Shown here one piece after another: positions 2,245-24,758 of a stretch of DNA of 64,000 bases (positions within the stretch are counted from its first letter, which is position 1; each line of letters begins with the position of its first letter). The DNA is from an uncultured Dehalococcoidia bacterium. Lineage in GTDB: Bacteria > Chloroflexota > Dehalococcoidia > SM23-28-2 > RBG-16-64-32. A model generated the notes under the pieces. It worked only from the letters and a program-made list of their open reading frames with translations. It made no database searches and was not told where the DNA came from. The position numbers were made by a program, and so were the translations under genes. The DNA lies in assembly GCA_964558415.1 (NCBI GenBank), contig CAZLDI010000007.1, positions 75,898 through 139,897 on the forward strand, read 5' to 3'.

Positions 2245-3063
2245 CTAGCGCTGGCAGCGCGGGCAGTAGTGGGTGCTGCGACCGGCGACCTTGGTGCGCC
2301 GGATCGCCGTCCCGCAGACGTAGCACGGCTCGCCGGTGCGGCGGAAGACGCGCACCTTCAGGTGATGACCACCCTCCCGACCGCTGGCGTCAAGGTAGTC
2401 GCGGAAGCTGGAGCCGCGGTCGCCCAGGGCTTCTTCGAGCGTTTGCCGGATGGCTGCGTGAAGGCGAGTGGAACCGGGGCGTGAGATCGAGTCCGCGGCG
2501 CGTGCGGGCCTGATACCGGCGAGGAAGAGGGCTTCGTCGGCGTAGATGTTGCCGATGCCCGCTATCGCCGCCTGGTCCAGCAGGACAGCTTTCACCGGAG
2601 CGGAGCGCCGCTTGAGGGTCGCGAGAAGGACGGTGGGGGTGAAAGCGTCTTCGAGCGGCTCCGGGCCGAGCGATCCGACGATGTGGGAGTCGTCGTCAAC
2701 CAGCCACATCGTGCCGAACTTGCGCAGGTCTATGAAGCAGAGCGACGCGCCGTCGTCCATCTGGAATCGCGCCCTCAAGTACGGACTTTCGTCACAACCG
2801 TGAGGGGAGTGGAGGAGGCGGCCGGTCATGCGCAGGTGGACGCCCCAGGTGAGGCCGCCCTGCAGTCGCAGAAGGAGATACTTGCCGCGGCGGTCGATGG
2901 CAGTGACGCGGTGGCCCGGGAGCAGCCGGCAGAAGTCGGCGGTTGGGAGGAGCTGGACGAGGCGCGGGGCGTTCGGTGAGACCCACGCCTGCGTGATTGT
3001 GCGGCCGGTGATGAGGGGGAGAAGGTCGCGGCGGATGGTTTCGACTTCGGGGAGCTCGGGCAT
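2245..3063 (-). CDS. mutM: formamidopyrimidine-DNA glycosylase (Fpg/MutM)
   Basis: Canonical N-terminus MPELPEVETIRR with catalytic Pro2/Glu3, an H2TH region, and a C-terminal zinc finger CYVCGTAIRRTKVAGRSTHYCPRCQ. The ORF caller's upstream extension (to 3162) runs into a tandem repeat; the true start is the ATG at 3063. Confidence 0.9.
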   Translation of the reverse strand: MPELPEVETIRRDLLPLITGRTITQAWVSPNAPRLVQLLPTADFCRLLPGHRVTAIDRRGKYLLLRLQGGLTWGVHLRMTGRLLHSPHGCDESPYLRARFQMDDGASLCFIDLRKFGTMWLVDDDSHIVGSLGPEPLEDAFTPTVLLATLKRRSAPVKAVLLDQAAIAGIGNIYADEALFLAGIRPARAADSISRPGSTRLHAAIRQTLEEALGDRGSSFRDYLDASGREGGHHLKVRVFRRTGEPCYVCGTAIRRTKVAGRSTHYCPRCQR

Positions 3064-3080
3064 GGGGACAGGATGGTGGG

Positions 3081-3206
3081 AGGGGGTCATAGGGGCAAGG
3101 GGGCATAGGGGCAAGGGGGCATGGGGGCATGGGGGCAAGGGGTCATAGGGGCAAGGGGTCATAGGGGCAAGGGGTCATAGGGGCAAGGGGGCAAGGGGTC
3201 ATAGGG
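3081..3206. repeat. G-rich 16-bp tandem repeat (minisatellite), unit AGGGGCAAGGGG(G/T)CAT, about 7.5 copies
   Basis: Read directly: the unit recurs at 3091, 3107, 3131, 3147, 3163, 3179 with G/T variants and partial units. It lies immediately upstream of the fpg start codon. Confidence 0.85.
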
Positions 3207-3227
3207 CGTTGTGCGGGATGGTGCGCT

Positions 3228-3292
3228 GTGAGATTCGTTCGCCCTCCGCACCGCCTTCCTTCCGCCCCCCTCGGCTCGGAATGACAGAGGGG
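3228..3292 (+). repeat. REP-like dispersed intergenic repeat copy (GAGATTCGTTCGCC...GCTCGGAATGACAGAGG)
   Basis: Shares its 5' (AGATTC-TTCGC) and 3' (GCTCrGAATGACA) ends with at least 8 other copies. It abuts the stop codon of the TPR lipoprotein gene. Confidence 0.7.
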
Positions 3293-4204: not shown

Positions 4205-4272
4205 GGCAAACTGTGAGATTCGTTCGCCCTCCGCCCTGCCTTCCTTCCGCCCCGCTCGGCTCAGAATGACAG
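4205..4272 (+). repeat. REP-like dispersed repeat copy
   Basis: GAGATTCGTTCGCCCTCCGCCCTGCCTTCCTTCCGCCCCGCTCGGCTCAGAATGACAGAGG, nearly identical to the copy at 3228-3292. Confidence 0.7.
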
Positions 4273-4282
4273 AGGCGGGCGT

Positions 4283-4350: not shown

Positions 4351-7206
4351 TCAGGACGCAAACTCGCCGACCTCCACGGGTTCGCCGTATCGCATCTCGC
4401 CCCAGTTGCGGCCTGTTTTCGTGTCCACCTTAAGGGGAACGCACATTTCCAGGGATTTGGGCATTATGTCGATGCAGAGGGAGCGGACACCCTCCAGCTC
4501 ATCGCGGGGGCACTCGAAAATCAGCTCGTCGTGGATCTGGAGGGTCATGAGGCTGCGTAGTTTGCGGCGCTCCATCTCAGCGTCGAGGCGGTTCATCGCG
4601 ATCTTGATGATGTCGGCGGCGGTGCCCTGGACGGGCATGTTGATGGCGGCTCGCTCAGCGGCGTTGCGGACGTTGAAGTTGGTGGAGTTTATCTCCGGGA
4701 TGTAGCGCCGGCGGCCGAAGAGCGTCTCCGCGTAGCCGAGGCTGCGCACGGTGGAGGTCGTCTCGGAGACGTAGCGCTGGATGCCGGGGTACTTCTCGAA
4801 GTAGGTGCGGATGAACGTCGCGGCCTCTTCGCGGGAGATCTTTTCGCGGACTGAGAGGCCGAACTCGCTGAGTCCGTACAACACGCCGAAGTTAAAGACT
4901 TTGGCGCGCCGGCGCATTGCGGTCGTCACCTGATCAAGGGGAACGGCGAAGACCTGCGAGGCGGTGGCGGCGTGGATGTCGTCGTCGCGCAGGAAGGCTT
5001 CGACAAGGTTGGGGTCCCGGGTGATGTGGGCGATGATGCGCAGCTCGATCTGGGAATAGTCGGCCGCCAGGAGCATCGGATCCGGCCCAACGTCGCGAGC
5101 GATGAAGGCGCGTCGGATCTGCTCGCCGAGCTGTGTGCGGACAGGGATGTTCATAAGGTTGGGATTGCTGGAGGCGAGGCGTCCGGTGGCGGCGCCGGTC
5201 TGGTTGAACTCCGTGTGGATGCGGTTGGTACGCGGGTTGACGATGAACGGCAGCGTGTCGAGGTAAGTAGACTTCAGCTTGGTGAGCTCGCGGTGCTCGA
5301 AGATGAAGTCGATGACCGGATGCATGCCACGCAGGTTCTCCAGAGACTGGGCATCGGTGCTGTAGGCGCCGGTCTTGAGGCGGCGGGTCTTCGGCAGGTG
5401 CTGCTCCTCGAAGAGCACGTGCGAGAGCTGCTGAGGGGAGCCGATGTTGAACTCGTGGCCGGCGGCGGCGTAGATCTCCTCCTCGAGCCGGCGAATTTCC
5501 ATCGTGAGTGACTCCGACATCTCGCGCAGCGAGCCAGTCTCGATGGCGACGCCGTTCAGCTCCATGCGCGCCAGGACTGACACGAGCGGCATCTCGATCT
5601 CGTCGAAGAGGCTGCGCATGCCCTTCTCCTCCAGCTCCGGTTCGAGGAGATCACGCAGGCGCGCGGCGGCATCCACGGAGGCGCAGGCGTAGGCCGCCGC
5701 AGCCTCCACATCGAGCTCAGCCATTGTGAGCTGGGCGGCCTTGCGGCCAGACGGCCGCCCGTCCGGGCGAGCGCCGGCGCCGAGAAGCTGGGAGCGGTCC
5801 GGCAGCCCGATGCCCAGACGGCGTGAGGCGAGCCAGCTCAGGGCGAGCGCGCCTTCCTCCGGGCGTCCCGCGCCGCCGCCCTCGCCCAGGAGGTGGGCGG
5901 CGATCATGGTGTCGAAGTCGACGCCGCGCGCCCAGACGCCGTGGCGGGCGAGGGTGACGAGGTCCGGCTTGAGATAGTGGCCGCTGATGCGGACGTCCGG
6001 CGACTCGATGAGGGGCCCGAGGCGGGCGAGAACGGCGTCGAGCGGCAGCTGGGGGTCCTCGCCGAGGCGGACGGCGTGGCCAACGGGGATATAGTGCGCC
6101 TCGCCGCCTCCGAGACCGACCGTCAGGCCAACGATATCGGCGCGCATCGGCTCGCTGGACGTGGTCTGGGCGTCGAGCAGGAAGCGCTTCTGGTCCGCGA
6201 TGCGATCGACGACGGCCGCCAGTTGGTCTTCCGTGCGGACGGTGGTGAAGCGCTGCTCGACAGGCGATGCCGCGAGCGGCAATTGCTGCGCCTCCGGAGC
6301 GCGGTCAATGCCGTGTGGGAGGCGCGAGACGAGCGTCCGGAACTCGAGCTCCCGGAAGAGCTCGGTGACGCGCAAGGGATCGTAGTGGGCGTAGAAGTCC
6401 GCGGCGGCGAGGTCAAGCTGGACGGGCGCCTTGGTGTCGATTGTCGCGAGGTGCTTGCTCTGGCGGAGCTGGTCCGCGTTCTCGCGGAAGACGGGCTGGA
6501 AACGGGCGGGCTGGATCTCGTCGATGCGGTCGAGGAGCGCCTCGACGGATCCAAACTCGTCGACGAGCTTGACGGCGGTCTTGTCGCCGACACCCGGGAC
6601 GCCGGCGATGTTGTCGGAGGTGTCGCCCTTGAGCGCTTTGAGATCGGGCATCTGGTGGGGCAGGACACCGTAGCGGTCCTTGACGTCGGCGGCGGTCTTG
6701 TAGAGGACGGAGTCTCGCTGGTAGGGGCGGTACATCCAGAGGTGGACGCCGGGCTGGACAAGCTGGGCGATATCGCTATCCATGCTCACGAGATACGTCT
6801 CGACGCCCTGCCCAGCGGCCTGAACGGAGAGCGCGCCCATGAGGTCGTCGGCCTCGAAGCCGGGGAGCTCGCTGACGGGAATGCCGAAGACGGCGATGAC
6901 CTGGCGGCAGCGGTCGATCTGGGCGCGCAGTTCATCGGGCATAGCGACGCGCGTGGCCTTGTAGGTGTCGGTGATCTCATGACGGAAGGTCGGCCCGGGC
7001 GAGTCGAGGGTGATGATCACGTGAGTGGGCTTGAGCTCACCGAACATGGCGAGGAAGGTGTTGGTGAAGCCGAAGACGGCGCCGACAAGCTCGCCGGTGG
7101 CGCGGACCTTGAGGGGCTCCTTCATGCCGGCGAGGGCGTGGAAGGAGCGGTGGATGATGGAGTGGCCGTCGATGAGGACGAGGCGGGGGGGAGGGGTATC
7201 GCTCAC
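4351..7206 (-). CDS. polA: DNA polymerase I
   Basis: 951 aa with 5'-3' exonuclease, 3'-5' exonuclease and polymerase domains. Motifs include LIDGHSIIHR, DYSQIELRI and QVHDELIFE. Confidence 0.97.
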   Translation of the reverse strand: MSDTPPPRLVLIDGHSIIHRSFHALAGMKEPLKVRATGELVGAVFGFTNTFLAMFGELKPTHVIITLDSPGPTFRHEITDTYKATRVAMPDELRAQIDRCRQVIAVFGIPVSELPGFEADDLMGALSVQAAGQGVETYLVSMDSDIAQLVQPGVHLWMYRPYQRDSVLYKTAADVKDRYGVLPHQMPDLKALKGDTSDNIAGVPGVGDKTAVKLVDEFGSVEALLDRIDEIQPARFQPVFRENADQLRQSKHLATIDTKAPVQLDLAAADFYAHYDPLRVTELFRELEFRTLVSRLPHGIDRAPEAQQLPLAASPVEQRFTTVRTEDQLAAVVDRIADQKRFLLDAQTTSSEPMRADIVGLTVGLGGGEAHYIPVGHAVRLGEDPQLPLDAVLARLGPLIESPDVRISGHYLKPDLVTLARHGVWARGVDFDTMIAAHLLGEGGGAGRPEEGALALSWLASRRLGIGLPDRSQLLGAGARPDGRPSGRKAAQLTMAELDVEAAAAYACASVDAAARLRDLLEPELEEKGMRSLFDEIEMPLVSVLARMELNGVAIETGSLREMSESLTMEIRRLEEEIYAAAGHEFNIGSPQQLSHVLFEEQHLPKTRRLKTGAYSTDAQSLENLRGMHPVIDFIFEHRELTKLKSTYLDTLPFIVNPRTNRIHTEFNQTGAATGRLASSNPNLMNIPVRTQLGEQIRRAFIARDVGPDPMLLAADYSQIELRIIAHITRDPNLVEAFLRDDDIHAATASQVFAVPLDQVTTAMRRRAKVFNFGVLYGLSEFGLSVREKISREEAATFIRTYFEKYPGIQRYVSETTSTVRSLGYAETLFGRRRYIPEINSTNFNVRNAAERAAINMPVQGTAADIIKIAMNRLDAEMERRKLRSLMTLQIHDELIFECPRDELEGVRSLCIDIMPKSLEMCVPLKVDTKTGRNWGEMRYGEPVEVGEFAS

Positions 7207-12068: not shown

Positions 12069-13316
12069 GTGAGCCAGAGACTGCCCCTGGAAGGCGTCAA
12101 GGTAGCGGACTTCTCCTGGTTCGGCGCGGGGCCGATCTGCGGGCGGCTGCTCGCTGACTACGGGGCCACGGTGGTGCGGATCGAGTCGGAGACGCACCTG
12201 GACTCGCTGCGGATCGTGGCGCCGTTCGCGAAGGGGAAGACGGGGTACAACGTCAGCGGGTACTTCAACAACTACAACGCTGGGAAGCTGGGCATCCTGC
12301 TCAACCTGAACACGGATGAGGGGATACACATCGCGCACAAGTTGATTGAATGGGCGGACGTATTCCTGACCAACATCACACCGCGCACGATTGAGCGCTG
12401 GGGGTTTACGTACGACAAGCTGATAGAGCTCAACCGAGAGATCATCGGCGTTTACGTGCCGATGCAGGGCTTCGATGGCCCACACAGGGACTTCCTGGGG
12501 TTTGGCGCGGTGCTGACGCCGATAACGGGGTATAACCATCTGTCGGGGTTCGCGAACCGTCCGCCGTTCGGACTGGGGACGAACTATCCGGACTACGTGA
12601 TCAACCCGGGGCACACGTTCGTCGCCATCATGGCCGCGCTGCGCTACAGACGGCGGACGGGGAAGGGGCAACGGATCGAGGTGGCGCAGATCGAGTCTTC
12701 GGTGGCACCCCTGGGGCCGGCGGTCTTCGACTACACGGCGAACGGGCGGGTGCAGACGCGCAGCGGGAACGGAATAGCGAACGCCGCGCCGCACAACGCG
12801 TTCAAGTGCAGGCCGCTGACGGACGGCGGCAGGCCGATGGATGAGCGCTGGATCGTCATCGCCTGCTTCAGCGACGACGAATGGAGCGCGTTCGTGCAAG
12901 CCATGGGGAGCCCGGAATGGGCGCGCGACACGAAATTCTCGACCCTTGCCGCAAGGAAGTCGAACGAGGCGGAGATGGACGCGCATATCAACGCCTGGAC
13001 GGCGGACAAGGACGCGTACAAACTGATGGCTGAGCTGCAGGGCCGTGGCGTGCCGGCCGGGGTGGTGCAGAGCGCGCGCGAGATCCTGGACGTGGATGAG
13101 CACATGAAGGCGCGGGGGTATTACGTGTACCTGAAGCATCCGGAGGCGGGCCGTCACGCGCACGACGGGCCGCCGTTTGTGCTCTCGAAGACGCCAGGGC
13201 GGCTGCGGTCGCCGGCACCGTGCCTGGGGGAGCATACGGAGTACGTGTGCAAGGAGATCCTGGGGTTGGACGACGAGGGGATCGCGGAGCTGATGGTGGC
13301 GGGGGCGCTGGCGTAG
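12069..13316 (+). CDS. family III CoA-transferase (second, tandem paralog)
   Basis: VKVADFSWFGAGPICGRLLADYGATVVRIE. GTG start 9 bp after the upstream gene. Confidence 0.85.
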   Translation: MSQRLPLEGVKVADFSWFGAGPICGRLLADYGATVVRIESETHLDSLRIVAPFAKGKTGYNVSGYFNNYNAGKLGILLNLNTDEGIHIAHKLIEWADVFLTNITPRTIERWGFTYDKLIELNREIIGVYVPMQGFDGPHRDFLGFGAVLTPITGYNHLSGFANRPPFGLGTNYPDYVINPGHTFVAIMAALRYRRRTGKGQRIEVAQIESSVAPLGPAVFDYTANGRVQTRSGNGIANAAPHNAFKCRPLTDGGRPMDERWIVIACFSDDEWSAFVQAMGSPEWARDTKFSTLAARKSNEAEMDAHINAWTADKDAYKLMAELQGRGVPAGVVQSAREILDVDEHMKARGYYVYLKHPEAGRHAHDGPPFVLSKTPGRLRSPAPCLGEHTEYVCKEILGLDDEGIAELMVAGALA

Positions 13317-13330
13317 GGGAGATTTCTGCG

Positions 13331-13422
13331 CACGGATAATGTTCACACCCCTCTCCCCCGCCGGATTCCTTCGCGAAGGGACATGAGCCCACGTTCGAGC
13401 CAGGTGGCCGCTCAGAATGACA
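13331..13422 (+). repeat. REP-like dispersed repeat copy
   Basis: GTTCACACCCCTCTCCCCCGCCGGATTCCTTCGCGAAG...GCTCAGAATGACA. Confidence 0.75.
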
Positions 13423-13430
13423 CGATCGGG

Positions 13431-13480
13431 ACGATGAGGGGATCGCGGAGCTGATGGTGGCGGGGGCGCTGGCGTAGGGG
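13431..13480 (+). repeat. direct repeat of the CoA-transferase 3' tail (copy 2 of 3)
   Basis: GACGATGAGGGGATCGCGGAGCTGATGGTGGCGGGGGCGCTGGCGTAGGGG matches 13272-13319 (the native tail, DDEGIAELMVAGALA*) with 1 mismatch. Confidence 0.85.
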
Positions 13481-13515
13481 CACGTGGATGCGGGGGATGC
13501 TGCCAGCGAACGCCG

Positions 13516-13595
13516 TTCACACCCCACACGCCGCCAGATTCCTTCGCGAAGAAGCACCGTGCCACGCCCCGAATGTGGCAGTCGCTCAGAATGAC
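13516..13595 (+). repeat. REP-like dispersed repeat copy
   Basis: TTCACACCCCACACGCCGCCAGATTCCTTCGCGAAG...GTCGCTCAGAATGAC. Confidence 0.75.
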
Positions 13596-13597
13596 TT

Positions 13598-13640
13598 GGG
13601 GATCGCGGAAGTGACGGCGGTGGCGGCGCTGGCGTAGGGA
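13598..13640 (+). repeat. diverged third copy of the CoA-transferase 3' tail
   Basis: GGGATCGCGGAAGTGACGGCGGTGGCGGCGCTGGCGTAGGGA encodes GIAEVTAVAALA*, against GIAELMVAGALA* in the native tail. Confidence 0.6.
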
Positions 13641-15818: not shown

Positions 15819-16229
15819 TCAAGGCTCCATTCGTTTGACGTTCGTGATGCGATCGAAGTCCGCATCGTAGCTGAAGAGCTCCGTCAGGCCCAGCCGCTCC
15901 ATATGCGCGACGGTCAGGGCATCTTCGAAATCGATCCTCGGATGCGAGGCCCAGATGTCCAGCGCCCGCACGCAGGCTCCTTTATGGGCGAGCTTGAGGC
16001 CGCGGAGCGTCAGTAGCGGGCGCAACCGCGCGCCTATGTCCACCGGTGTCAGGCCGTAATGGGCACGGGAACGGAGCACGTAACAGACCTCGGCGATGAT
16101 CACCTCCGACGTCGTCACAACCTCGTGCCCCGCCTTCACTCGCTGAAATAGAGCGAAGCAGGCCTCCGCCTTCCTCTCATCGCCCGCAACCAGATAGCGG
16201 AGGAAGACGTTCGCGTCCAGGAACCTCAC
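15819..16229 (-). CDS. vapC: PIN-domain ribonuclease toxin VapC
   Basis: MRFLDANVFLRYL..., with acidic PIN residues (D5, E, D). Confidence 0.8.
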   Translation of the reverse strand: MRFLDANVFLRYLVAGDERKAEACFALFQRVKAGHEVVTTSEVIIAEVCYVLRSRAHYGLTPVDIGARLRPLLTLRGLKLAHKGACVRALDIWASHPRIDFEDALTVAHMERLGLTELFSYDADFDRITNVKRMEP

Positions 16230-16486
16230 GTCCCGTCGCCGGCCTCCGCTGTCGCTTTCTCATCGCGAGCGGCGCGGCTGACGGACCTGAAGTCCCTGGT
16301 GCGCGTTGCCGGCTTGACCGAGGCAAACGCGGACTCCAGGGTGAATCTGGCGGGAAGCAGCTGGACCTTGTCGTCTTCGATCGAGAATGCGACCTTGTCT
16401 CTTGGCTTAAGGCCGAGAAGGCGCCGCACCTCCGACGGGACGGTCACCTGGCCACGTTGCGTCATTGTCGTAACTATCTCCTTCAT
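16226..16486 (-). CDS. vapB: AbrB/MazE-type antitoxin VapB
   Basis: SpoVT/AbrB swapped-hairpin N-terminus (TQRGQVTVPSEVRRLLGLKPRDKVAF). 4-bp overlap with vapC. Confidence 0.8.
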   Translation of the reverse strand: MKEIVTTMTQRGQVTVPSEVRRLLGLKPRDKVAFSIEDDKVQLLPARFTLESAFASVKPATRTRDFRSVSRAARDEKATAEAGDGT

Positions 16487-16694: not shown

Positions 16695-18338
16695 ATGGCG
16701 ATGATAGACGGCGGCGACCTAGTGGTGCGCGCGATCAAGCAGGAGGGCGTGGATACGATATTCACGCTGTGCGGCGGGCACGTGCAGGCGATCTACGACG
16801 CGTGCCTGGACGAGAACGTGCGGGTGATCGACACGCGGCACGAGCAGGTGGCGGGGCACGCGGCGGAGGGGTGGAGCCGGGCGACGCGGCGCTGCGGGGT
16901 GGGGGTGGTGACGGCGGGGCCGGGGGTGACGGACTGCACGACGGCGATCGCGAACGCCTGGCACAACAAGAGCCCGATGCTGATCATCGGCGGCCGCAGC
17001 CCGCTGTCTCGCTTCGAGATGGGGTCGCTGCAGGATATGGACCACACGGAGATGCTGAAGCCGATCACGAAGTGGGCGAAGTGCGTACACGAGACGAAGC
17101 GCATCCCGGAGTACATCTCGATGGGGTTCCGGGCGGCGCTGACGGGGCGGATGGGGCCGTCGTTCCTGGAGATCCCGACGGACGTGCTGTTCATGAAGGT
17201 GGAGGAGAACGAGGTGTTCTTCCCGCAGAGCTATCGTCCGGAGGGTCGCGTCTATCCTGACCCGAAGAGCGTGCGCAAGGCGGCGGAGGCGCTGCGGAGC
17301 GCCGAGCGGCCGGTGATCATGGCGGGCTCGGCGATCTACTGGAGCGAGGCGCACGAGGAGCTGCGGGAGCTGGCGGAGCTGATGCAGGCGCCGGTGTACC
17401 TGAACGCGATGGGACGGGGCTCGCTGAACCAGGAGCACGCGCTGTTCTACAGCCGCAGCCGGCGGACGGCGCTGACGAAGGCGGACTGCATCCTGGTGAT
17501 CGGGACGCCGATGGACTTCCGGCTGTCGTACGGGAAGCGATTCAACCCCGAAGCGAAGACGATCCAGGTGGACACCGATCCCGCGGAGCTGGGCCGCAAC
17601 CGCGACATCGACATCCAGCTCGAGGCCGACGCCCGGGCGAGCCTGGAGTCGCTGACGGCGGAGCTTTCCGGGTTCAAGGACGATCACAAGGCGTGGTTGG
17701 GGGAGCTGCGGGAGCAGGAGGACAAGACGCGCGCGCAGATGGAGGAGTGGATGGCGAGCGACCGCGAGCCGATCCACCCGCTGCGGTTGTGCGCGGAGAT
17801 GGCGAACTTCGTGGACGAGAACACGATCGTCGTGGGCGACGGCGGGGACATCGTCAGCCACGCCTCGAAGATACTGCCGGTGAACCAGCCCGGGCAGTGG
17901 TATGACCCGGGCCCGTTCGGGACGCTGGGCGTGGGGACGGGTTTCTGCATGGCGATCAACAGCGTGTACCCGAACAAGCGCATCCTGATGGTCAACGGCG
18001 ACGGGGCTTTCGGGCTGAACGGCTTCGACTTCGACACGTTCGTGCGCTTCAACATCCCGGTGGTGTCCGTGGTGGGGAACGACCGGCAATGGGGACAGAT
18101 CACGGTGGGACAGCGCGCGATGTACGGGAAGGACCGGGTGGTGGCGAGCATGCTGGGGGACGAGTGCCGGTACGACAAGATCGTCGAAGGGATGGGCGGC
18201 CACGGGGAGTACGTCACGAAGCCGGACGAGATCCGGCCGGCGATCGAGCGGGCGTTCGCATCCGGGAAGCCGGCGTGCGTGAACGTAATTATGGACCAGG
18301 AGCCGCCTGGGATCATGGGCGGGTACGAGTTTATGTAG
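16695..18338 (+). CDS. thiamine-pyrophosphate-dependent enzyme (acetolactate synthase / oxalyl-CoA decarboxylase family)
   Basis: 547 aa with PYR, central and PP domains. ThDP motif GDGAFGLNGFDFDTFVRFNIPVVSVVGND. RBS GGAAGGAG upstream. Confidence 0.85.
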   Translation: MAMIDGGDLVVRAIKQEGVDTIFTLCGGHVQAIYDACLDENVRVIDTRHEQVAGHAAEGWSRATRRCGVGVVTAGPGVTDCTTAIANAWHNKSPMLIIGGRSPLSRFEMGSLQDMDHTEMLKPITKWAKCVHETKRIPEYISMGFRAALTGRMGPSFLEIPTDVLFMKVEENEVFFPQSYRPEGRVYPDPKSVRKAAEALRSAERPVIMAGSAIYWSEAHEELRELAELMQAPVYLNAMGRGSLNQEHALFYSRSRRTALTKADCILVIGTPMDFRLSYGKRFNPEAKTIQVDTDPAELGRNRDIDIQLEADARASLESLTAELSGFKDDHKAWLGELREQEDKTRAQMEEWMASDREPIHPLRLCAEMANFVDENTIVVGDGGDIVSHASKILPVNQPGQWYDPGPFGTLGVGTGFCMAINSVYPNKRILMVNGDGAFGLNGFDFDTFVRFNIPVVSVVGNDRQWGQITVGQRAMYGKDRVVASMLGDECRYDKIVEGMGGHGEYVTKPDEIRPAIERAFASGKPACVNVIMDQEPPGIMGGYEFM

Positions 18339-18461
18339 GGAGCAGCGATGCGCGCTATCAGCTGATGAGCTCACACTCCGCCGCCCGGGATGATCCACGG
18401 AATTGGCACAGATGTACACGGAGAATGAGCCGCTCGGCTACCCGCAGATGAGAGTAGATGG

Positions 18462-19367
18462 ATGCCACGCATAGACTACGGCGGCGGGCTGACTATCGAC
18501 GCGCCGGAGGGGATGACCGTCCTTGAGACGTCGATCCAGCATGGGCTGGAGCACAGGGCCGCCTGCGGCGGACAGGAGCGCTGCACCACCTGTCGAATCG
18601 AAATACTTGACGGTACTGAGAACTGCCCGCCGAGCACGGCCGGCGAGCGCGAGGTCCTGGAGCTCGGAGGCTTTGGGGAAGACATCCGGCTCGGCTGCTC
18701 TCTCAGGCCATCGGGCGATATCAAGATCCGGCTTCTCGTCCGCGAGAGGATCGGTAAAGAAGACCTGCGACCGGAGGGGATGGCGCGAGAACGGGAGGTG
18801 GCCGTTTTGTTCGCGGATATCCGCAACTTCACCGCCTTCTCAGAGAATCACCTCGCTTTCGACGTCCTGCATCTTCTCAACCGCTACTTCGACCGTATGG
18901 GCACTATCATCGACTTCAATCGCGGCGAAGTGATTGCCTTCCTGGGAGACGGAATCGTCGCCTTCTTCGAGGGCGGCGACCCGACGCGAGCGGCAGTCGC
19001 CGCCACGCGGTGCGCCACCCAGATGCTCAAGGGCGCGCAGGCATTCTCGCGCTACTCAACTGAGCACTTCGGTTTCGATGTGCGGACCGGCATTGGCATC
19101 GCCTTCGGCCCGGCGGTGATCGGCGAGGTCGGGTACTACCGCAACACCCGTCCGAACTGTATCGGCGACGTGGTGAACACCGCGTCGCGCGTACAGGACG
19201 CAACGAAGGAACACGGCGCGTCTCTCCTGGTGACGGACGCCATCCGCAAGCTAGCCGAAGGCAAGTTCGAGTTCGGGCGCGAGTTTACCTGCGAGCTGCG
19301 CGGCAAGGAGGGAGAGCATCAGTTGTACGAAGTGCTGCGGGAGAAGCGAAGTCGCGCTCGTGCTTGA
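18462..19367 (+). CDS. 2Fe-2S ferredoxin domain fused to a class III adenylate/guanylate cyclase catalytic domain
   Basis: N-terminal ~95 aa carry Cys C-x5-C-x2-C...C (ACGGQERCTTC...LGCS). The C-terminal cyclase homology domain has metal-binding Asp residues (VLFADIRNFT, LGDGIVAFF) and transition-state residues (NTASRV). Confidence 0.85.
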   Translation: MPRIDYGGGLTIDAPEGMTVLETSIQHGLEHRAACGGQERCTTCRIEILDGTENCPPSTAGEREVLELGGFGEDIRLGCSLRPSGDIKIRLLVRERIGKEDLRPEGMAREREVAVLFADIRNFTAFSENHLAFDVLHLLNRYFDRMGTIIDFNRGEVIAFLGDGIVAFFEGGDPTRAAVAATRCATQMLKGAQAFSRYSTEHFGFDVRTGIGIAFGPAVIGEVGYYRNTRPNCIGDVVNTASRVQDATKEHGASLLVTDAIRKLAEGKFEFGREFTCELRGKEGEHQLYEVLREKRSRARA

Positions 19368-19490
19368 CGCTGCGTTGTGACACGGGTCACAGGCAAAAGG
19401 CGGGAGGAGGTCTATCATGCGAGCGGGCCGCGCGGTGGCAAGGAGAACTTCGCCGCTCCCGACGCAGGGAGGGAAGGGCCAGGTGACAAG

Positions 19491-21230
19491 ATGAGACTCA
19501 TGGAAGCTGAACGGAAGGCAAGCGTCGACGTCTGCCCCCTCGAAGAGCTTCAGCGCGAGCGCGTGAAGGTCGTCTCGGCGGAGGGGCGCGTAATCGCGGT
19601 GTTCTACGAGGAAGGGAAGCTCTACGCGCTGGACAACCGCTGCCCGCACATGGGCTTCCCGTTGAATCGCGGGACTGTGAAGGACGGCATCCTGACCTGC
19701 CACTGGCACCACGCGAAGTTCGATCTCGCCGGGGGCTGCACGTTCGACCCTTTCGCGGACGACGTGACGCGCTTCCATGTGGAGGAGCGCGAGCGCACGG
19801 TCTGGCTCGATCCGAGGCCGATCGAGGAGGACCGGCGCGTACACTGGCTGGGCAAACTCGACGAGGGGCTGGAACAGAACCTGCGATTAGTGCTGGCGAA
19901 GAGCGTGATCGGCCTCGAGGGGCTCGACGCGACGCGAGATATTCTGACCAAGGCGGCGCTCTTCGGGATACGCAACCGGGTGTCGGGCTGGAGCAGCGGC
20001 CTCTCGATTATGACGGGGATGGCAAACGTGCTGCCGTCGCTCGACGAAGCCGACCGGCCTCTGGCGCTGTACCAGGGACTCGTGCACGTCGCCCGGACGA
20101 CCGAGGGGCAGCCTCCGAGCTTCGATCTCGAAGCACTTAACACAGATGAGAAGCGGCCGGCGCGCTATCTCGACTGGTTCCGGCGCTTCATCGAGGTGCG
20201 GGCGGAGGACGCGGCGGAGCGGACGCTGCGCACGGCGATCCGCATCGGGCTGCCAGAGCGGGCGGTGGCAGACATGGTTTTCGCTGCCTGTACCGACCAC
20301 CTCTTCCTGAACGAGGGGCACTCACTGGACTTCGCGAACAAGGCGTTCGAGCTGCTGGACCACATCGGCTGGGAGCACGCAGAGGAGGTGCTGGTCTCGC
20401 TCATCCCCGACTTCATCCAGGCGACGCGAATGGAAGAGACGTCGCCCTGGCGGCACCCAGTCAACTTACCGGAGCTACTGGGCGAGGTCTACCAGCAGCT
20501 CGATGCGGCGATCGATGAGGGCGGCGGGAAGCTGAACGGATGGGCTGAACACCAAGCGCTGGCGGAGCAGATACTGGACGGCGAGCCGAAGGAGACGCTC
20601 GCTGCGATGCTAGACGCTGTGCGGCAGGGTGCGCCGCTGACGGAGCTTTCGGCGACAGTGGCGTACGCGGCGGTGCGGCGACCGGTGCACTTCCGCGTGA
20701 CGAACGAGTTCGCCGACTGGGACACGATCCACCACACGTTCACGTACGCCAACGGCGTCGACCAGGCGGTGCGGCGGGCGCCGTCAAAGCTGCTGGCGCG
20801 CGGCATCTTCGACGGGGCAATGTCGGTTTACCTGGAGCGATTCCTCAACGTCCCCAAGCAGCCTATACCGACGCCCTCGGGTGGCACGGCCAGTCGTGGG
20901 GAAATATTGGCCTCATTCGACGAGCAAGGGAAGGTGGATGAGGCGGCGCAGCAGGTGGCGGACGCGATCGCCGCGGGGAATCAGAGCGAAATAATTGGGA
21001 CACTGGGCCACGCGTTGCTGCGGGAGGACGCGCACTTCCACCAGTTCCAGATCTACGAAGCGGGACTCCGCCAGTACGGCAACTTCGGTAATACACCGCT
21101 GGGTGACCACGTTCTCATCGGGACGACGCGCTTTCTGGCGGCGCGCTCACCGACGGTGCGGGCGACACCGCAGACGTACGACATCGCGGCGCGGCTGCAT
21201 CGGGGAGAGTCCCTGCACGGGGAGGATTAA
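19491..21230 (+). CDS. Rieske [2Fe-2S] domain protein with a large uncharacterised C-terminal helical domain
   Basis: Rieske boxes CPHMG...CHWHH near the N-terminus. RBS AGGGAGGGAAGG upstream of the ATG at 19491. The ~440-aa C-terminal region has no recognised motifs. Confidence 0.75.
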   Translation: MRLMEAERKASVDVCPLEELQRERVKVVSAEGRVIAVFYEEGKLYALDNRCPHMGFPLNRGTVKDGILTCHWHHAKFDLAGGCTFDPFADDVTRFHVEERERTVWLDPRPIEEDRRVHWLGKLDEGLEQNLRLVLAKSVIGLEGLDATRDILTKAALFGIRNRVSGWSSGLSIMTGMANVLPSLDEADRPLALYQGLVHVARTTEGQPPSFDLEALNTDEKRPARYLDWFRRFIEVRAEDAAERTLRTAIRIGLPERAVADMVFAACTDHLFLNEGHSLDFANKAFELLDHIGWEHAEEVLVSLIPDFIQATRMEETSPWRHPVNLPELLGEVYQQLDAAIDEGGGKLNGWAEHQALAEQILDGEPKETLAAMLDAVRQGAPLTELSATVAYAAVRRPVHFRVTNEFADWDTIHHTFTYANGVDQAVRRAPSKLLARGIFDGAMSVYLERFLNVPKQPIPTPSGGTASRGEILASFDEQGKVDEAAQQVADAIAAGNQSEIIGTLGHALLREDAHFHQFQIYEAGLRQYGNFGNTPLGDHVLIGTTRFLAARSPTVRATPQTYDIAARLHRGESLHGED

Positions 21231-21277
21231 GGAGGCTAGTTGGTCCAAGAACTGCTTCGGGTTCACGCGCCCGCGGA

Positions 21278-21371
21278 CGGGCGTTCGCGTCAAGGAAGCC
21301 TCCGTTCGTGAACGTGATTATGGACCAGGAGCCGCCTGGGATCATGGGCGAGTACGAGTTTATGTAGGGAG
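21278..21371 (+). repeat. diverged direct repeat of the 3' tail of the TPP-enzyme gene (copy 2), 2.95 kb downstream of the native tail
   Basis: The core GTGAACGTGATTATGGACCAGGAGCCGCCTGGGATCATGGGCGAGTACGAGTTTATGTAGGGAG (21308-21371) matches 18279-18342 with 2 mismatches, and weaker similarity extends ~30 bp further upstream. In frame it encodes ...RAFASRKPPFVNVIMDQEPPGIMGEYEFM*, against ...RAFASGKPACVNVIMDQEPPGIMGGYEFM* in the native gene. Confidence 0.85.
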
Positions 21372-21401
21372 AGGCGGTGCCCCGCGGCGGAGAGTAGTCT
21401 C

Positions 21402-21434
21402 CCGCTCATCCTACGAGTGCCTCAGGATGAGCGG
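21402..21434. terminator. hairpin following the displaced TPP tail copy (probable original terminator of the TPP gene)
   Basis: CCGCTCATCCT-acgagtgcctc-AGGATGAGCGG. Confidence 0.4.
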
Positions 21435-21546
21435 TGGTAGCCTCTCTGACCGCCGCCTGAGGTGACGCCTTTCGCTTGCGCGCCTCAGGACCCACCTGTA
21501 ATCTTCTCAACATCGGTTCGACGAGCTATCCATCTGGAGGTACGCT

Positions 21547-21887
21547 ATGGGAAAGCTGAATTGCATCGTCATCGACTGCGCGGACCCCGACAAGGCCTCG
21601 CAATTCTGGGCGCAGGCGCTCGAAGGGTACGAGATCGACAAACAGCCGTGGGGCATCTCGATGAGTCCGACTCTGATCCGCTGATCTACTTCGAGGTCGT
21701 GCCGGAGGGTAAGGCCGTGAAGAACCGCCTGCACATCAACATCCGTTCCGCGGACCGAGGGGTGGAGGTGAAGCGGCTCGTCTCGCTCGGCGCGACGGAG
21801 ATCGAGGAGATGAGCCCGGGCGGCGGCTACGTCTGGACGAACATGAAGGACGTCGAGGGGAACGAGTTCTGCGTGTCGCAGGCTTAG
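21547..21887 (+). pseudogene. VOC/glyoxalase-family gene with an apparent +1/-1 frameshift (or a sequencing error)
   Basis: The N-terminal part MGKLNCIVIDCADPDKASQFWAQALEGYEI... reads in one frame and stops near 21681. The C-terminal part DPLIYFEVVPEGKAVKNRLHINIRSADRGVEVKRLVSLGATEI... continues in another frame to 21887. Confidence 0.5.
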
Positions 21888-21891: not shown

Positions 21892-22464
21892 ATGACAGCG
21901 GCCGACGTTCAGCGGCTCGCTGAGGCCGCGATGACCGGCGACGCAAACACCGTCCGACTTATTCTCGCGGAGGAGCCCGGATCGGCGGGCGAGTACACGG
22001 ACGAGGGCTGGACGGCGCTGCACCTCGCGGCGACGCCGGAGGTCGCAGGACTCCTGCTGGACGCGGGCGCGGACATCCGAGCGCAGAACCGGCACAGGTT
22101 CGCGGGGCCGGGGAACAGCCCGCTGCACGGCGCGACGTACTTAAACCGGGTGGAGGTCGTGCGCTTCCTGCTGGCGCGCGGGGCGGATGCCAACGCCCGC
22201 GACAACGCGGGGCTGACGGCGCTGCACCTGGCCGCCGGTAACGGCTGGTTGGAGTGCGCGCGCGTGTTGCTTGGTGGCGGCGCGGACGCTATGGTCCGCA
22301 CGAACCGCGAGGGCGTGCCGAAGGCGTGGCGCGAGGTAACACCGCTGGACGTGCTGTCGTCTACCGGACGGAAGCGGGATGATGGGTCGGAGGTGCCGAC
22401 GGACGTGAACGTGGCTATAGGGGAGCTGCTGGCAGCGTACGGAGCGCAGGAGCAAGTGACATGA
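21892..22464 (+). CDS. ankyrin-repeat protein
   Basis: At least 4 ANK repeats (GWTALHLAA, SPLHGATY, GLTALHLAAGNG). Confidence 0.8.
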   Translation: MTAADVQRLAEAAMTGDANTVRLILAEEPGSAGEYTDEGWTALHLAATPEVAGLLLDAGADIRAQNRHRFAGPGNSPLHGATYLNRVEVVRFLLARGADANARDNAGLTALHLAAGNGWLECARVLLGGGADAMVRTNREGVPKAWREVTPLDVLSSTGRKRDDGSEVPTDVNVAIGELLAAYGAQEQVT

Positions 22465-22707: not shown

Positions 22708-23121
22708 TCAGGCAGCCGGCTCCACGCGGGTGATGCCTGGCAGGCGGTCGAAGTCCGTGTCCCAGGTGTAGATTTCCGAGAGGCGCTGGGAACGCATGAA
22801 GGCGGCGTTGTACGCGTCCGCAAACGACAGACGGGTTGTCGCGTAGACATCCAGCGCTTCGTAGTAAGTTTGCTTATCGGCGATTCGGACGTTCGGTAGC
22901 GCAAGGACGTACTGCAGGTCGTCCCGGATCTTTGCTCTGGGGACCACGTAGCTCTTCTCGAGGATGAAGACTGTCTCAAAGATGACCATCGGTGAGACGG
23001 TCACCTGTTCTTCCCCAGCTTCCACGCGCAGAAGCAGCGCCACCACCCGCGACGCCTTCTCTTCATCGTCACGGGTGAGAAGGCGGACGAGGATGTTGGT
23101 ATCAAGGAAGCGGTGCGCCAT
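22708..23121 (-). CDS. vapC: PIN-domain toxin VapC (second pair)
   Basis: MAHRFLDTNILVRLL... The start ATG at 23121 was chosen over the longer ORF-caller extension. Confidence 0.8.
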   Translation of the reverse strand: MAHRFLDTNILVRLLTRDDEEKASRVVALLLRVEAGEEQVTVSPMVIFETVFILEKSYVVPRAKIRDDLQYVLALPNVRIADKQTYYEALDVYATTRLSFADAYNAAFMRSQRLSEIYTWDTDFDRLPGITRVEPAA

Positions 23122-23125
23122 GATC

Positions 23126-23383
23126 CTACCGCTCAGTCTCGGACAGTACTTCCTCGGCCACTCCCCGTTCGAACTCTTCGCGCAATTGTCGGAAGTCTTC
23201 GGGCCTGCTGCGCGGTGAGACTGAGCCGTACATCGCAAGAATCCCCGACGCCTTCCTCAGCCTCGCGGTCTCCCCGTCGATCTCGAAGGCGATCTTATCT
23301 CGCGGCTTGAGGCCCAGCCGCAAGCGGATCTCCTTGGGTATAGTCACTTGGCCTTTCACTGTTAATGTCGTTTGTTTCAGCAT
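23126..23383 (-). CDS. vapB: AbrB/SpoVT-type antitoxin VapB (second pair; paralog of 16226-16486)
   Basis: MLKQTTLTVKGQVTIPKEIRLRLGLKPRDKIAF. 4 bp upstream of vapC. Confidence 0.75.
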   Translation of the reverse strand: MLKQTTLTVKGQVTIPKEIRLRLGLKPRDKIAFEIDGETARLRKASGILAMYGSVSPRSRPEDFRQLREEFERGVAEEVLSETER

Positions 23384-23500
23384 ACGCTCCATACCCTCTA
23401 TCCGTAGCAATACCGTCTTCTATCAGTAATACTATCACATGCCGGGTCGACGCAGTTGAGATGTGGGCGGGCATGCCTGAACGCCCGGGGCGCGGCCTGA

Positions 23501-23639: not shown

Positions 23640-23678
23640 TTGGGGTTATCCGCCTCGCGCTGAGGGGGGCGGGAGGCG

Positions 23679-24758
23679 CTAGTTGTCGAGGAACTGCTTG
23701 AGCATCGGGCTCATGCGCTCGCGGCGGTCGCCGAGGCCGGAGACCTTTAGGCGATGCATGTACTCGTTGACGCGCTTGCGCTGGACCTGCATGGACAGTT
23801 GGACGCCCTTGTCGATGTTCTTGATGCCGCCGCCCATAAGGATGGCGAGGGCCTCGAAAAGAGCGAAGCTGCGGTCGTCGGCGGTCGGGTCCGGCGTGAG
23901 GGTTGCCTCAACCTTGTCCAGGTAGTGGTGGATCTCCTCGCGCCGCCAGGGCTCGGTGTCCAGAACGTACTTCAGGTGCATGACGCCGAAGCCGAGGTGT
24001 CGCGACTCATCCTGGCCGCACATGCGGAAGATGCGCTTCTCGGCGTCGTTCTGGCCGATGTACTCGCCCATGCGGAACATGGACTGGACGAAACCTTCAG
24101 CGGCGACGTGCATGATGGCGGACATCTCGGTGAAGTCCTGGGCGTCGATGATGACGCGGAGGCCCTGCTGGGGGAGGGAGGAGAGGAGACCACCGCCGTT
24201 GGCGAGGGCGCGCTTGCGGAAGACGTCCAGGTGGCGGGCTTCGTCCATGATCTGGGAGATGAGGAAGAGCTTAACCTCGTGGTGCTCGCTGTTGATCTTG
24301 GGAAGCCACTGGCCGGGGGTGTCGCCGGCGATGAACTCGACCTCGGTAAGCATCGTGCAGAGCTGGCACATCGCGCGCTCCATGTCGTCCGGGAGCGGCT
24401 GGATCTCGTCCCAGGGGATGTCCGTGGCGGATGACCACTGGCGCTGAACCGCCTCTTCGTAGAGGAGGCGCGCGTTCTCGGAGTAGACGTCCGCGGCGTG
24501 AGAGTAGGTGCCCGGGACGCGTGGCGCATCAGGGCGGGCTTTGGAGCCGCGGGCGCGGATAGAACGGTTGTCGCTGTCGGCGGGGACCTCACCAGCGGGC
24601 CCGATCTCGATCTCGTCCAGAGTGAGGCCGCGCTTGCCGGGCTTCGCGCGCATGCCCCAGGGGTGGCCGTTTTCGTCAAGGTTGAGCCAGCTGAGATCCA
24701 GGGGCTGTACTTCGGCGGGCTCGCGGAGCTTCTCGAGGATGTTGACATCGATAGCCAT
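23679..24758 (-). CDS. ferritin-like diiron-carboxylate protein (putative oxygenase/oxidase)
   Basis: Two E...E-x2-H motifs (LTEVE...DEARH and AAEG...QDESRH). 359 aa. Confidence 0.65.
   Translation of the reverse strand: MAIDVNILEKLREPAEVQPLDLSWLNLDENGHPWGMRAKPGKRGLTLDEIEIGPAGEVPADSDNRSIRARGSKARPDAPRVPGTYSHAADVYSENARLLYEEAVQRQWSSATDIPWDEIQPLPDDMERAMCQLCTMLTEVEFIAGDTPGQWLPKINSEHHEVKLFLISQIMDEARHLDVFRKRALANGGGLLSSLPQQGLRVIIDAQDFTEMSAIMHVAAEGFVQSMFRMGEYIGQNDAEKRIFRMCGQDESRHLGFGVMHLKYVLDTEPWRREEIHHYLDKVEATLTPDPTADDRSFALFEALAILMGGGIKNIDKGVQLSMQVQRKRVNEYMHRLKVSGLGDRRERMSPMLKQFLDN

Follow-up and report, generated by a model that had tools for sequence, protein, structure and literature searches.

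Duplicated 3' end of a TPP-dependent enzyme gene in an uncultured Dehalococcoidia bacterium: a probable recombination scar between two versions of one gene slot

Islands with tyrosine or serine integrases reside in the 3' ends of tRNA genes, tmRNA genes and some protein genes. In minimal mobile elements, alternative cassettes replace one another through homologous recombination in their flanks, and no mobility genes take part. In homology-facilitated illegitimate recombination (HFIR; de Vries & Wackernagel 2002; Prudhomme et al. 2002; Meier & Wackernagel 2003), homology anchors one end of the incoming DNA in a conserved gene, whereas its other end is attached through a few bases of microhomology. 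For Neisseria, minimal mobile elements, or recombination hot-spot slots between conserved flanking genes, are treated in, e.g., PMC3787668 and PMC3082526. Moreover, the C-terminal displacement of Rhs has been explained by a circular intermediate and a crossover, with identical core fragments within the locus, in a model which explicitly leaves open the origin of the circle (Jackson et al. 2009, PMC2935791). The arrays of the Rhs, CDI and T6SS systems have been attributed to a single homologous crossover or to HFIR, with no dedicated recombinase (PMC2935791; Kirchberger et al. 2017, PMC5361080). Finally, the single crossover of circles carrying a shortened lacZ end left gene-end duplications of 109-950 bp in 56 out of 60 E. 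coli recombinants (Amarir-Bouhram et al. 2011, PMC3240628).

The locus described here lies within the window, i.e. the whole 64,000-nucleotide stretch of DNA that was analysed, where the 3' end of the gene for a TPP-dependent enzyme occurs twice. The comparison with related genomes indicates that this duplicated tail is probably the scar of a recombination that stacked two haplotypes of one slot, and not the attachment site of a self-mobile island. The features of the locus, with the letters used below, are the following:

16695-18338, + strand: intact TPP-dependent enzyme gene (TPP), 547 aa, acetolactate-synthase-like (Pfam TPP_enzyme_N/M/C), left conserved flank of the slot
18249-18351, + strand: tail copy 1 (T), consisting of the final 90 nt of the TPP ORF (stop included) and a further 13 nt 3' of it
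18462-19367, + strand: F, 301 aa, 2Fe-2S ferredoxin domain and class III nucleotidyl cyclase domain (Pfam Fer2 + Guanylate_cyc)
19491-21230, + strand: R, 579 aa, N-terminal Rieske [2Fe-2S] domain (Pfam Rieske, residues 12-93)
21231-21280, - strand: P', decayed 3' end of a P-like gene (stop and ~16 codons), directly adjoining copy 2
21278-21380, + strand: tail copy 2 (T'), displaced and untranslated TPP pseudo-tail, 11 mismatches in 103 nt relative to copy 1
21372-21470, no strand: imperfect palindrome of ~95 nt with core hairpin 21402-21434, without a T-run; the hairpin family also occurs in L042
21547-21887, + strand: G, Glyoxalase_6-family gene, frameshifted here, in relatives the usual immediate downstream neighbour of TPP
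21892-22464, + strand: A, ankyrin-repeat protein gene (Pfam Ank), part of the displaced or second module
22708-23410, - strand: VapC (PIN) / VapB (AbrB-MazE type) toxin-antitoxin pair within the slot (Pfam PIN, MazE_antitoxin)
23679-24758, - strand: P, conserved convergent gene of 359 aa with homologues in relatives, right conserved flank of the slot

The TPP enzyme scores 586.5 bits against NCBIfam NF004516, whose cutoff is 587; its orthologues, with 82-96% amino acid identity, were found on 24 Chloroflexota/Dehalococcoidia MAG contigs, and an exact-protein look-up of the window's own enzyme found no record. F and R are the only genes bracketed by the tails, as the first-pass annotation had stated. 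Homologues of F number 176, some of them with a fused Rieske domain, and only short contigs were recovered when metagenomes were scanned with the F protein. R has more than 7800 homologues, mostly of ~579 aa, and its C-terminal region of ~470 aa has no Pfam match. P carries two ExxH motifs and has no Pfam or NCBIfam match, and at least 10 relatives have a homologue of it (82-86% amino acid identity) at a distance of 0.1-4.5 kb downstream of TPP. Homologues of A are found downstream of TPP in L001, L015, L018 and L023. A scan of 15.5-25.5 kb against Rfam gave no match.

The duplication of the tail was recovered both by a repeat search, as one two-copy family (18249-18351 and 21278-21380; 103 nt, 89% identity, 11 mismatches), and by self-BLASTN of the window, where 18249-18342 matches 21278-21371 with 91.5% identity over 94 nt (E 1.2e-30), the second strongest self-match within the 64 kb. 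The first-pass annotation had already reported it, with a correct description of the 64-nt core (18279-18342 and 21308-21371, with two mismatches) and of the weaker similarity over ~30 nt upstream; the two mismatches are at 18287 and 18322; its spacing of 2.95 kb is corrected to a gap of 2926 nt, or 3029 nt from start to start. About 13 nt 3' of the stop codon also match, after which the similarity ends: longer homology, which would make the hairpin part of the duplication, was sought 3' of the tails and none was found past ~13-16 nt after the stop (score 11; mean for shuffled sequence 9.4).

Copy 2 reads as RAFASRKPPFVNVIMDQEPPGIMGEYEFM followed by a stop, with no indel relative to copy 1. 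To this extent it is the in-frame C-terminus that had been annotated, but it lies within no ORF of at least 40 aa and, judging from the coordinates, is out of frame with the Rieske gene. Its secondary structure is not significant (z -0.36), folding no better than shuffled sequence, and it is without dyad symmetry. A gradient of mismatches, with the core most identical and the edges less so, gave a binomial P of ~0.004 when calculated post hoc by hand and ~0.12 in a permutation scan, and was dropped as evidence in itself. The repeat arrangement is present in four assemblies; JGI contig Ga0136847_10389996 (L028) has the same arrangement, 99.97% identical over 10.2 kb, and the 64-nt core is exactly where the Logan contigs L029 and L030 begin.

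The two tails have rare synonymous states in common at positions -73, -49, -31, -16 and -7: the T at -31 occurs in none of 22 relatives, the states at -49 and -16 each in one of the 22, and those at -7 and -73 each in two. Furthermore, T' is 89-91% identical to T and at most 86% identical to any relative. The shared rare states, together with the closeness of T' to T, indicate that both tails derive from the window's own lineage; the replacement 3' end, which had been ascribed to an incoming island, is thus not foreign, and a further paralogue is a very unlikely source of copy 2, which is nearest to copy 1 and not to any other sampled TPP tail. Copy 1 has a single synonymous change, and copy 2 has four unique changes at positions that are invariant in the 22 relatives (GKPAC to RKPPF, and GGY to GEY), which points to relaxed constraint on T'. 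Copy 2 is a decaying, non-functional pseudo-tail of the same lineage, in keeping with the earlier view that it was displaced.

TPP and P bound a variable slot in these soil Chloroflexota, where relatives carry small gene sets that differ. The order TPP-G(-A)...P is found in L001, L003, L008, L011, L018, L022 and L023, TPP-F-R-P in L031, and TPP-F-R in L032, L050, L053 and L054, the region downstream of R being complete, among the F-R contigs, only in L031 and L053; in L006, TPP directly adjoins P. Both arrangements of the slot are seen in relatives that are 82-89% identical at the nucleotide level. The DNA between TPP and its usual neighbour is indeed extra relative to many related genomes, as first noted. 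It was also taken for an inserted island, whereas at least five other contigs from four or five lineages (L031, L032/L051, L050, L053, L054) have F-R immediately 3' of TPP and no second TPP tail. A second tail was found in none of the 22 relatives, and none has two tails with nothing between them, an arrangement that would have meant a simple local duplication. From its position in these relatives, F-R is a resident of the site right after TPP and not a roaming island. The ankyrin gene directly precedes F in L036, and a truncated one precedes it in L042, so that an ancestral slot of the order G-A-F-R, and a route of several steps within one genome, may be envisaged. A neighbour-joining tree built from the terminal 345 nt of TPP, intended to place the window in an F-R or a G-A clade, was unresolved, the haplotypes not being monophyletic.

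The junction itself retains a trace of the second flanking gene. The segment between the Rieske stop and copy 2 (21231-21280) aligns in antisense, with 3 indels, to 23672-23730 of the window and to the P homologue of L031 at its 3' end; its local score of 25 compares with a shuffle maximum of 18 (0/2000), and its best non-self match in the whole window is the 3' end of P. The order at the junction, with the P 3' end followed by the TPP tail from -90, is b/a, i.e. the distal end of an interval joined to its proximal end, as expected for a duplication-type or Campbell-type join of the interval from TPP (-90) to P (+50). The presence of this remnant of the slot's other flanking gene at the end of the segment points to a duplication-type join of two versions of one locus. 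The microhomology between P' and T' is at most the 3-nt CGG, which is not significant in DNA of ~65% GC.

The strong hairpin that had been noted at 21402-21434 is present as the core of the palindrome 21372-21470 (RNA MFE -56 kcal/mol, z -3.75). Its interpretation as the terminator of the TPP gene does not hold, since it has no T-run, no terminator-like site was found, and it is not conserved after TPP in most relatives; the corresponding prediction that TPP would there be followed directly by the hairpin fails as well: 7 relatives have the glyoxalase-like gene within 12-35 nt after the TPP stop. The only relative of the hairpin is in L042, beside a GIY-YIG ORF, and it is absent from the other loci examined. 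It was also considered as a REP-like repeat of the genome, which was rejected: the window holds it only once, and nothing related was seen outside L042.

No integrase, resolvase or transposase was detected by Pfam in the bracketed genes, their neighbours and ~50 of 66 high-GC3 candidate ORFs across the 64 kb, and a tRNA scan found no tRNA in the window. Of the features that characterise integrase islands, direct repeats including the target 3' end are present, and neither a recombinase in the scanned ORFs nor a repeat-flanked or empty site in relatives was found. With respect to integrons, T' shows no attC-like fold, no integrase was found and the palindrome 21372-21470 is single in the window.

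The window contains a second locus of this kind at mdh, where the same architecture had been proposed: the scar is of the same kind, although the true repeats (T1, T2 and T3) lie at 52018-52066, 52875-52923 and 54422-54501. Downstream of mdh come the modules with T2 (49 nt) and T3 (~80 nt); the three copies share a core of 39-41 nt that is 100% identical, whereas the paralogues HC1 and HC2, which flank the mdh remnants, are only 70% identical. Given this difference, a one-off neutral scar is insufficient without gene conversion or repeated crossover; the identical cores could also be produced by a site-specific system. No right-hand flank remnants were found before T2 and T3. The array fits the same recombination model as that proposed for TPP. 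Among the relatives, L004 shows a gene-head duplication, and L038 has a tail repeat of 30 nt flanking a distant FdxCyc gene; repeat lengths vary (30, 49, 80 and 103 nt), and so does the position of the boundaries with respect to the stop codon. A 65-nt repeat (3226-3290 and 4211-4275), considered as the mdh case, proved to be unrelated and intergenic, after polA and a TPR gene.

In the proposed mechanism, two versions of the slot would have been joined head to tail in the window's lineage, one join being illegitimate, between ~50 nt of the P 3' end and TPP at -90, and the other homologous. The most economical path would be a circle and a single crossover: a fragment spanning the slot of a conspecific haplotype would be circularised, and a single RecA-type crossover, within the TPP tail of ~100 nt or else the P tail of ~50 nt, would then integrate it and so duplicate the homology on either side of the insert. 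An unequal illegitimate crossover, or HFIR, would give the same product, TPP-F-R-(P'/T')-hairpin-G-A-VapBC-P. The upstream copy leaves the TPP gene intact, T' and P' are untranslated and decaying, and the displaced glyoxalase gene is now a pseudogene. As the structure is symmetric, either F-R or the hairpin-glyoxalase-ankyrin-VapBC segment could be the incoming module.

A purely intragenomic origin would account for the same b/a junction and for the lineage-specific states shared by the tails. Here an ancestral slot TPP-G-A-F-R-P would have been tandemly duplicated from TPP (-90) to P (+50) by illegitimate sister-chromosome recombination, after which G-A would have been lost from the first copy and F-R lost or replaced in the second; the Ank-F adjacencies of L036 and L042 suggest that the order G-A-F-R existed in some lineages. 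At least three events are needed, however, two of them clean deletions, no Ank remnant was seen between TPP and F (the similarity between the upstream regions of the window and L031 covers only ~25 nt before the F start codon), and both simpler, putatively parental haplotypes occur in nature, which makes this course of events rather unlikely. An artefact or an unrelated paralogue, with the second tail as a chimera formed in assembly at a shared k-mer or as the terminal piece of a second, mostly deleted TPP gene, is brought to mind by the fact that short-read assemblers break here, as with L029 and L030. It is very hard to credit, since the copies differ at 11 positions and each has unique flanks, the independent contig L028 is contiguous across the arrangement, T' is closest to copy 1, with whose rare synonymous states it agrees, and it is just 103 nt long and joined to a P remnant, not to further TPP sequence.

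The tails can also be read as attachment sites, F-R being a site-specific, integron-like cassette that integrates at an att overlapping the TPP tail and supplies a new tail, its integrase acting in trans or having been lost. Direct repeats flanking compact modules at two housekeeping genes in one window suggest as much, as do the three mdh tails, with their identical core between promoter-poor single-gene modules, which resemble tandem island accretion, and the tail repeat around the FdxCyc gene of L038. Repeat identity also peaks in the core and is lower at the edges, but this clustering of mismatches is not significant (P ~0.12). Such a cassette seems unlikely given that neither the module nor the scanned ORFs yielded an integrase, a transposase or a serine/tyrosine recombinase, that no tRNA was found, that F-R follows TPP without a second tail in other contigs and that the 22 relatives lack one. 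Nor would a site-specific event predict a module ending in the remnant of the other flank. The tails also lack dyad symmetry and an attC-like fold, the repeats differ in length and in their boundaries relative to the stop, and that of L004 is a gene head. A broader version is quite improbable: a dedicated route, in this lineage of soil Chloroflexota, by which promoter-poor cassettes, often class III cyclase genes, are added right after housekeeping genes, with a recombinase in trans or a self-perpetuating RecA-dependent process, so that the last 40-100 nt of the host gene would be a reusable attachment core and integron-like arrays would form without an integron. It is kept alive by the three mdh cores, which are identical and have diverged cassettes between them, by the fact that the pattern recurs at TPP and by the head and tail duplications in L004 and L038.

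The stacking of two slot haplotypes is close to the described systems in several respects. As in the Rhs, CDI and T6SS arrays, a conserved segment is duplicated for each new module and the incumbent is shunted downstream behind a fragment, the fragments varying in length and having identical cores within a locus; serial modules are represented by one displaced module at TPP and by those with T2 and T3 at mdh. Unlike those arrays, the segment concerned is the tail of a housekeeping gene (the TPP enzyme, mdh) and not the core of a polymorphic toxin, whole unrelated genes serve as modules instead of toxin tips with immunity genes, the C-terminus of the conserved gene is unchanged, and a remnant of the second flank is kept at the junction. 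The Campbell-type integration at lacZ shares the gene-end duplication of ~100-950 bp flanking the insert, with an intact gene upstream and a truncated copy on the far side, but was obtained with an engineered plasmid by conjugation in E. coli, whereas the event here is natural and chromosomal and its donor would be a related haplotype's version of this locus. In classical HFIR, recipient DNA is usually lost; here ~100 nt of it are duplicated instead. With minimal mobile elements, the locus has in common a slot between two conserved genes with strain-specific cassettes; there the cassettes are replaced, and here the two alternatives are added together and leave junction scars. Finally, direct repeats of a gene 3' end bracket the insert in integrase islands too, where a replacement end keeps the gene intact, but at this locus no integrase was found, there is no fixed att core, the content is resident at the same locus in relatives and a remnant of the second flank is present.

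For practice, the locus teaches that recombinases and relatives should be checked before direct repeats of gene tails are called att sites. It would be a clean natural case of accessory genes being added, and not swapped, beside core genes without mobile-element machinery, and the way in which the donor fragment closed is recorded at its junction, where traces of the two flanking genes are kept. Moreover, the presence of several scars in one 64-kb window and in related MAGs suggests that the process may add appreciably to gene-content change in uncultured soil Chloroflexota.

The first-pass annotation had reported that the 3' tail of a thiamine-enzyme (TPP) gene is duplicated downstream, and the repeat search, self-BLASTN and pairwise alignment all confirm this observation. 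A single repeat family with two members came out of the repeat search, at 18249-18351 and 21278-21380 (103 nt, 89% identity, start-to-start spacing 3029), and self-BLASTN of the window aligned 94 nt of it (91.5% identity, E 1.2e-30). In the pairwise alignment, the similarity begins at 'CGGGCGTTCGC', position -90 of the TPP ORF, crosses the stop codon and dies out about 13 nt beyond. The 64-nt core holds exactly two mismatches, as originally quoted; mismatches between the copies tend towards the repeat edges, a trend which is not significant in a permutation scan test (P about 0.12). The segment bracketed by the tails had also been correctly described as carrying two genes, here called F and R.

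Features of the TPP locus
16695-18338: TPP enzyme gene, intact, 547 aa, Pfam TPP_enzyme_N/M/C; tail copy 1 is its 3' end
18462-19367: F, fusion of Fer2 and class III cyclase domains (Pfam)
19491-21230: R, 579-aa protein with an N-terminal Rieske domain (Pfam)
21231-21280, antisense: P', remnant of about 50 nt, between the Rieske stop and tail copy 2
21547-21887 (21547-21684 and 21630-21887): G, frameshift-split Glyoxalase_6-family gene, just downstream of copy 2
23679-24758, minus strand: P, 359 aa, conserved, convergent to TPP

The best NCBIfam model for the TPP enzyme is the acetolactate-synthase-like NF004516, and P has neither a Pfam nor an NCBIfam match. P contains two ExxH motifs (DEARH, DESRH), which, judged by sequence only, recall ferritin-like di-iron proteins. 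The arrangement is genuine rather than a product of assembly: both tail copies are present in an independent JGI contig (L028), 99.97% identical to the window across 10.2 kb. Two Logan contigs (L029, L030) start exactly at the 64-nt core, the point at which assemblies of short reads are interrupted by a repeat.

When genomes were scanned with the TPP protein, 24 orthologous loci were identified in soil Chloroflexota/Dehalococcoidia MAGs (82-96% amino acid identity). In at least 10 relatives P lies 0.1-4.5 kb 3' of TPP and convergent to it, directly adjoining it in L006, and the conservation of these two genes at both sides thus defines a variable slot between them. Depending on the relative, G starts 12-35 nt past the TPP stop (L001, L003, L008, L011, L018, L022, L023), often followed by an ankyrin gene (A), or the slot reads TPP-F-R-terminator-P (L031), the TPP-F-R order being also found in L032/L051, L050, L053 and L054; F-R is therefore also a resident of the TPP-P slot. 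Further pieces of the slot occur as A-F in L036 and as TPP-hairpin-GIY-YIG-truncated A-F in L042. A second TPP tail was absent from every locus examined in relatives, including those carrying F-R, among which L031 and L053 are complete downstream of R. Pairs of VapC(PIN) and VapB(AbrB-type) genes are situated immediately upstream of TPP (15819-16486) and within the slot (22708-23410), and L004 has a VapC fragment (79% identity) on the downstream side of TPP. Among the window-wide ORFs, GC3 is very high in core genes (TPP 0.94, icd 0.91, mdh and P 0.89) and lower in slot genes (F 0.78, R 0.83, G 0.69, VapC 0.75, and 0.76 and 0.79 for HC1 and HC2, the hydrolase-cyclase paralogues at mdh).

The stretch between the Rieske stop and copy 2 derives from the 3' end of a P-like gene, of which it is a decayed antisense remnant. 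Its 'GCTAGTTGGTCCAAGAACTGCT......TCGGGTTCACGCGCCCGCGG' aligns to the 3' end of the window's own P ('GCTAGTTGTCGAGGAACTGCTTGAGCATCGGGCTCATGCGCTCGCGG') and to that of L031, with a local score of 25 (the highest of 2000 shuffles being 18), and when the whole window was searched this P 3' end was also its best non-self match. As P' abuts copy 2, the junction joins the 3' end of the right flank to the left-flank tail from -90 onwards, and such a permuted b|a junction is the product of tandem duplication, of unequal illegitimate crossover or of single-crossover integration of a circularised interval. The overlap at the join, read off the sequences, is 'CGG' at most, which is not significant at this GC content.

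To trace the origin of the tails, the 90 coding positions in each copy were set against those of 22 relatives. Ten states common to both copies are in the minority or absent among these relatives, including T at -31 (0/22), T at -49 and G at -16 (1/22 each), and T at -7 and G at -73 (2/22 each). Copy 2 shares 89-91% identity with copy 1 and no more than 86% with any relative, and the last 345 nt of TPP are at most 89% identical to any relative. Both tails therefore stem from the window's lineage, and the duplication postdates its divergence from all the relatives sampled. The copies differ at eight coding positions; at four of these, where all relatives agree, copy 2 alone departs and conserved residues are altered (GKPAC to RKPPF, GGY to GEY), while one difference is a synonymous change found in copy 1 alone. 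Copy 2 lies within no ORF of at least 40 aa, shows no significant fold, and is a decaying pseudo-tail.

The stem at 21402-21434, previously taken for the original terminator of the TPP gene, proved to be the core of an imperfect palindrome of about 95 nt (21372-21470; -56 kcal/mol, z -3.75). It has no T-run, the terminator scan returned no sites, and it falls in some 180 nt, between TPP stop and G start, that relatives do not have; in the loci retrieved, a related hairpin occurs only in L042, 3' of TPP and beside a GIY-YIG ORF. The hairpin therefore cannot be regarded as a terminator conserved with the TPP gene. In L042 (120-650), TPP is followed by 'CCCGCTCATCCT...AGGATGAGCGG'-type hairpins flanking a 93-aa GIY-YIG ORF, and then by a truncated ankyrin gene and F; the window carries a solo hairpin of the same family inside its palindrome at 21372-21470. 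This may be a small mobile GIY-YIG/hairpin element. Downstream, G is split identically in L028 and intact in relatives (e.g. L001, L018, L023), which fits a displaced gene that has lost its function or expression.

Taken as a recombination scar, which is the likely nature of the duplicated tail, the locus is most simply explained by the stacking of two haplotypes of the slot, TPP-F-R-P and TPP-(hairpin)-G-A-VapBC-P, both of which would derive from one species-level population. An illegitimate join of the P 3' end to TPP(-90) would circularise a fragment spanning one slot, and this circle would integrate via a single homologous crossover in the TPP tail (about 100 nt) or the P tail (about 50 nt), although homology-facilitated illegitimate recombination (HFIR) or unequal sister-chromosome exchange could yield the same product. 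Because the stacked product is symmetric, either module could be the incoming one. A purely intragenomic path, with tandem duplication of a G-A-F-R slot and two subsequent deletions, draws on the adjacency of A and F in L036 and L042, but requires more events and is considered improbable.

The earlier reading of an island inserted into the gene tail retains its insertion and displacement, with a pseudo-tail left behind, but not a self-contained island followed by the original terminator. An integrase-mediated island is at odds with the locus: Pfam assignments in about 50 of the 66 candidate ORFs of the window comprised metabolic and housekeeping families plus two VapBC pairs, with no integrase, transposase or other recombinase found, the module occurs in relatives without repeats, and the junction retains part of the second flank. 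No tRNA gene was found in the window, nor any Rfam match within 15.5-25.5 kb. An integron is likewise disfavoured at the TPP locus, where neither an attC-like fold nor IntI was found.

The same architecture had been claimed at mdh, where it is indeed present in a more elaborate form, with three tail copies in 51134-55869.

Tail copies at mdh
52018-52066: original mdh tail, last 49 nt of mdh
52875-52923: T2, mdh tail repeat following a SAM-methyltransferase gene
54422-54501: T3, about 80 nt of mdh tail after a hydrolase-cyclase gene, just before its 70%-identical paralogue

These copies separate the SAM-methyltransferase gene and two 70%-identical paralogues combining alpha/beta-hydrolase and class III cyclase. 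The closest relative (L046) has a minimal slot, in which mdh has an F420H2-quinone-reductase-like gene and fumarase directly after it; in L045 two additional genes intervene, and in the window the two conserved genes are 4.9 kb more distant, starting at 56964. A core of 39-41 nt is 100% identical across the three tails although the cassettes have diverged, which a one-off neutral scar fails to explain unless gene conversion or repeated crossover within that core is invoked. This identity is the main reason for keeping a small probability on a dedicated system, and reusable tail-core cassettes in these Chloroflexota are regarded as very unlikely.

Other duplications were also observed. In L004 the ribosome-binding site and first 36 nt of TPP are duplicated 662 nt upstream (5323-5375 and 5985-6036, 89% identity), enclosing a 98-aa ORF as a mirror image of the tail duplication. 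In L038, of unrelated context, a 30-nt piece from the end of an HTH-type gene lying upstream recurs (100-129 and 1161-1190, 93% identity) just past a 56%-identical Fer2-cyclase gene. Within the window, a 65-nt intergenic repeat on the minus strand (3226-3290 and 4211-4275, 94% identity, 'CCTCTGTCATTCYGAGCCGAG...GAACGAATCTCACAG') follows polA and a TPR-protein gene and is unrelated to the gene-tail repeats; tandem repeats occur at 3058-3206 (short proline-rich-coding units, 'CCCTTGCCCCTATGA'-like, at the 5' end or upstream of an fpg-like ORF) and at 13268-13639 (about 160 nt, upstream of the TPR gene at 13736).

F and R are probably functionally linked, since remoter F homologues (59-61% identity) occupy other loci, one of them adjoining a Rieske gene, and Fer2, class III cyclase and Rieske domains are fused in single polypeptides (P0166, P0167, P0169, P0172, P0173, P0175, P0179, P0185). 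Furthermore, a Rieske gene lies upstream of F in L049. The pair is perhaps a redox-sensing cyclase.

Scars of this kind are already known. In E. coli, a plasmid with the lacZ end gave end duplications of 109-950 bp in 56 of 60 recombinants, circular molecules whose homology had been shortened having integrated by single crossover (PMC3240628). For the effector-immunity arrays of T6SS, HFIR is the proposed mechanism (PMC5361080). Among natural systems, the nearest parallel is C-terminal displacement at rhs loci. In that model, circles bearing a core fragment and a new tip enter through a single crossover and push the old tip downstream, core fragments varying in length and cores being identical within a locus (PMC2935791). 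Unlike in the known displacement systems, a housekeeping enzyme gene here contributes its tail as the conserved segment, the modules consist of complete, unrelated genes, and part of the second flank survives as a remnant; the TPP locus is a new and unusually informative example.
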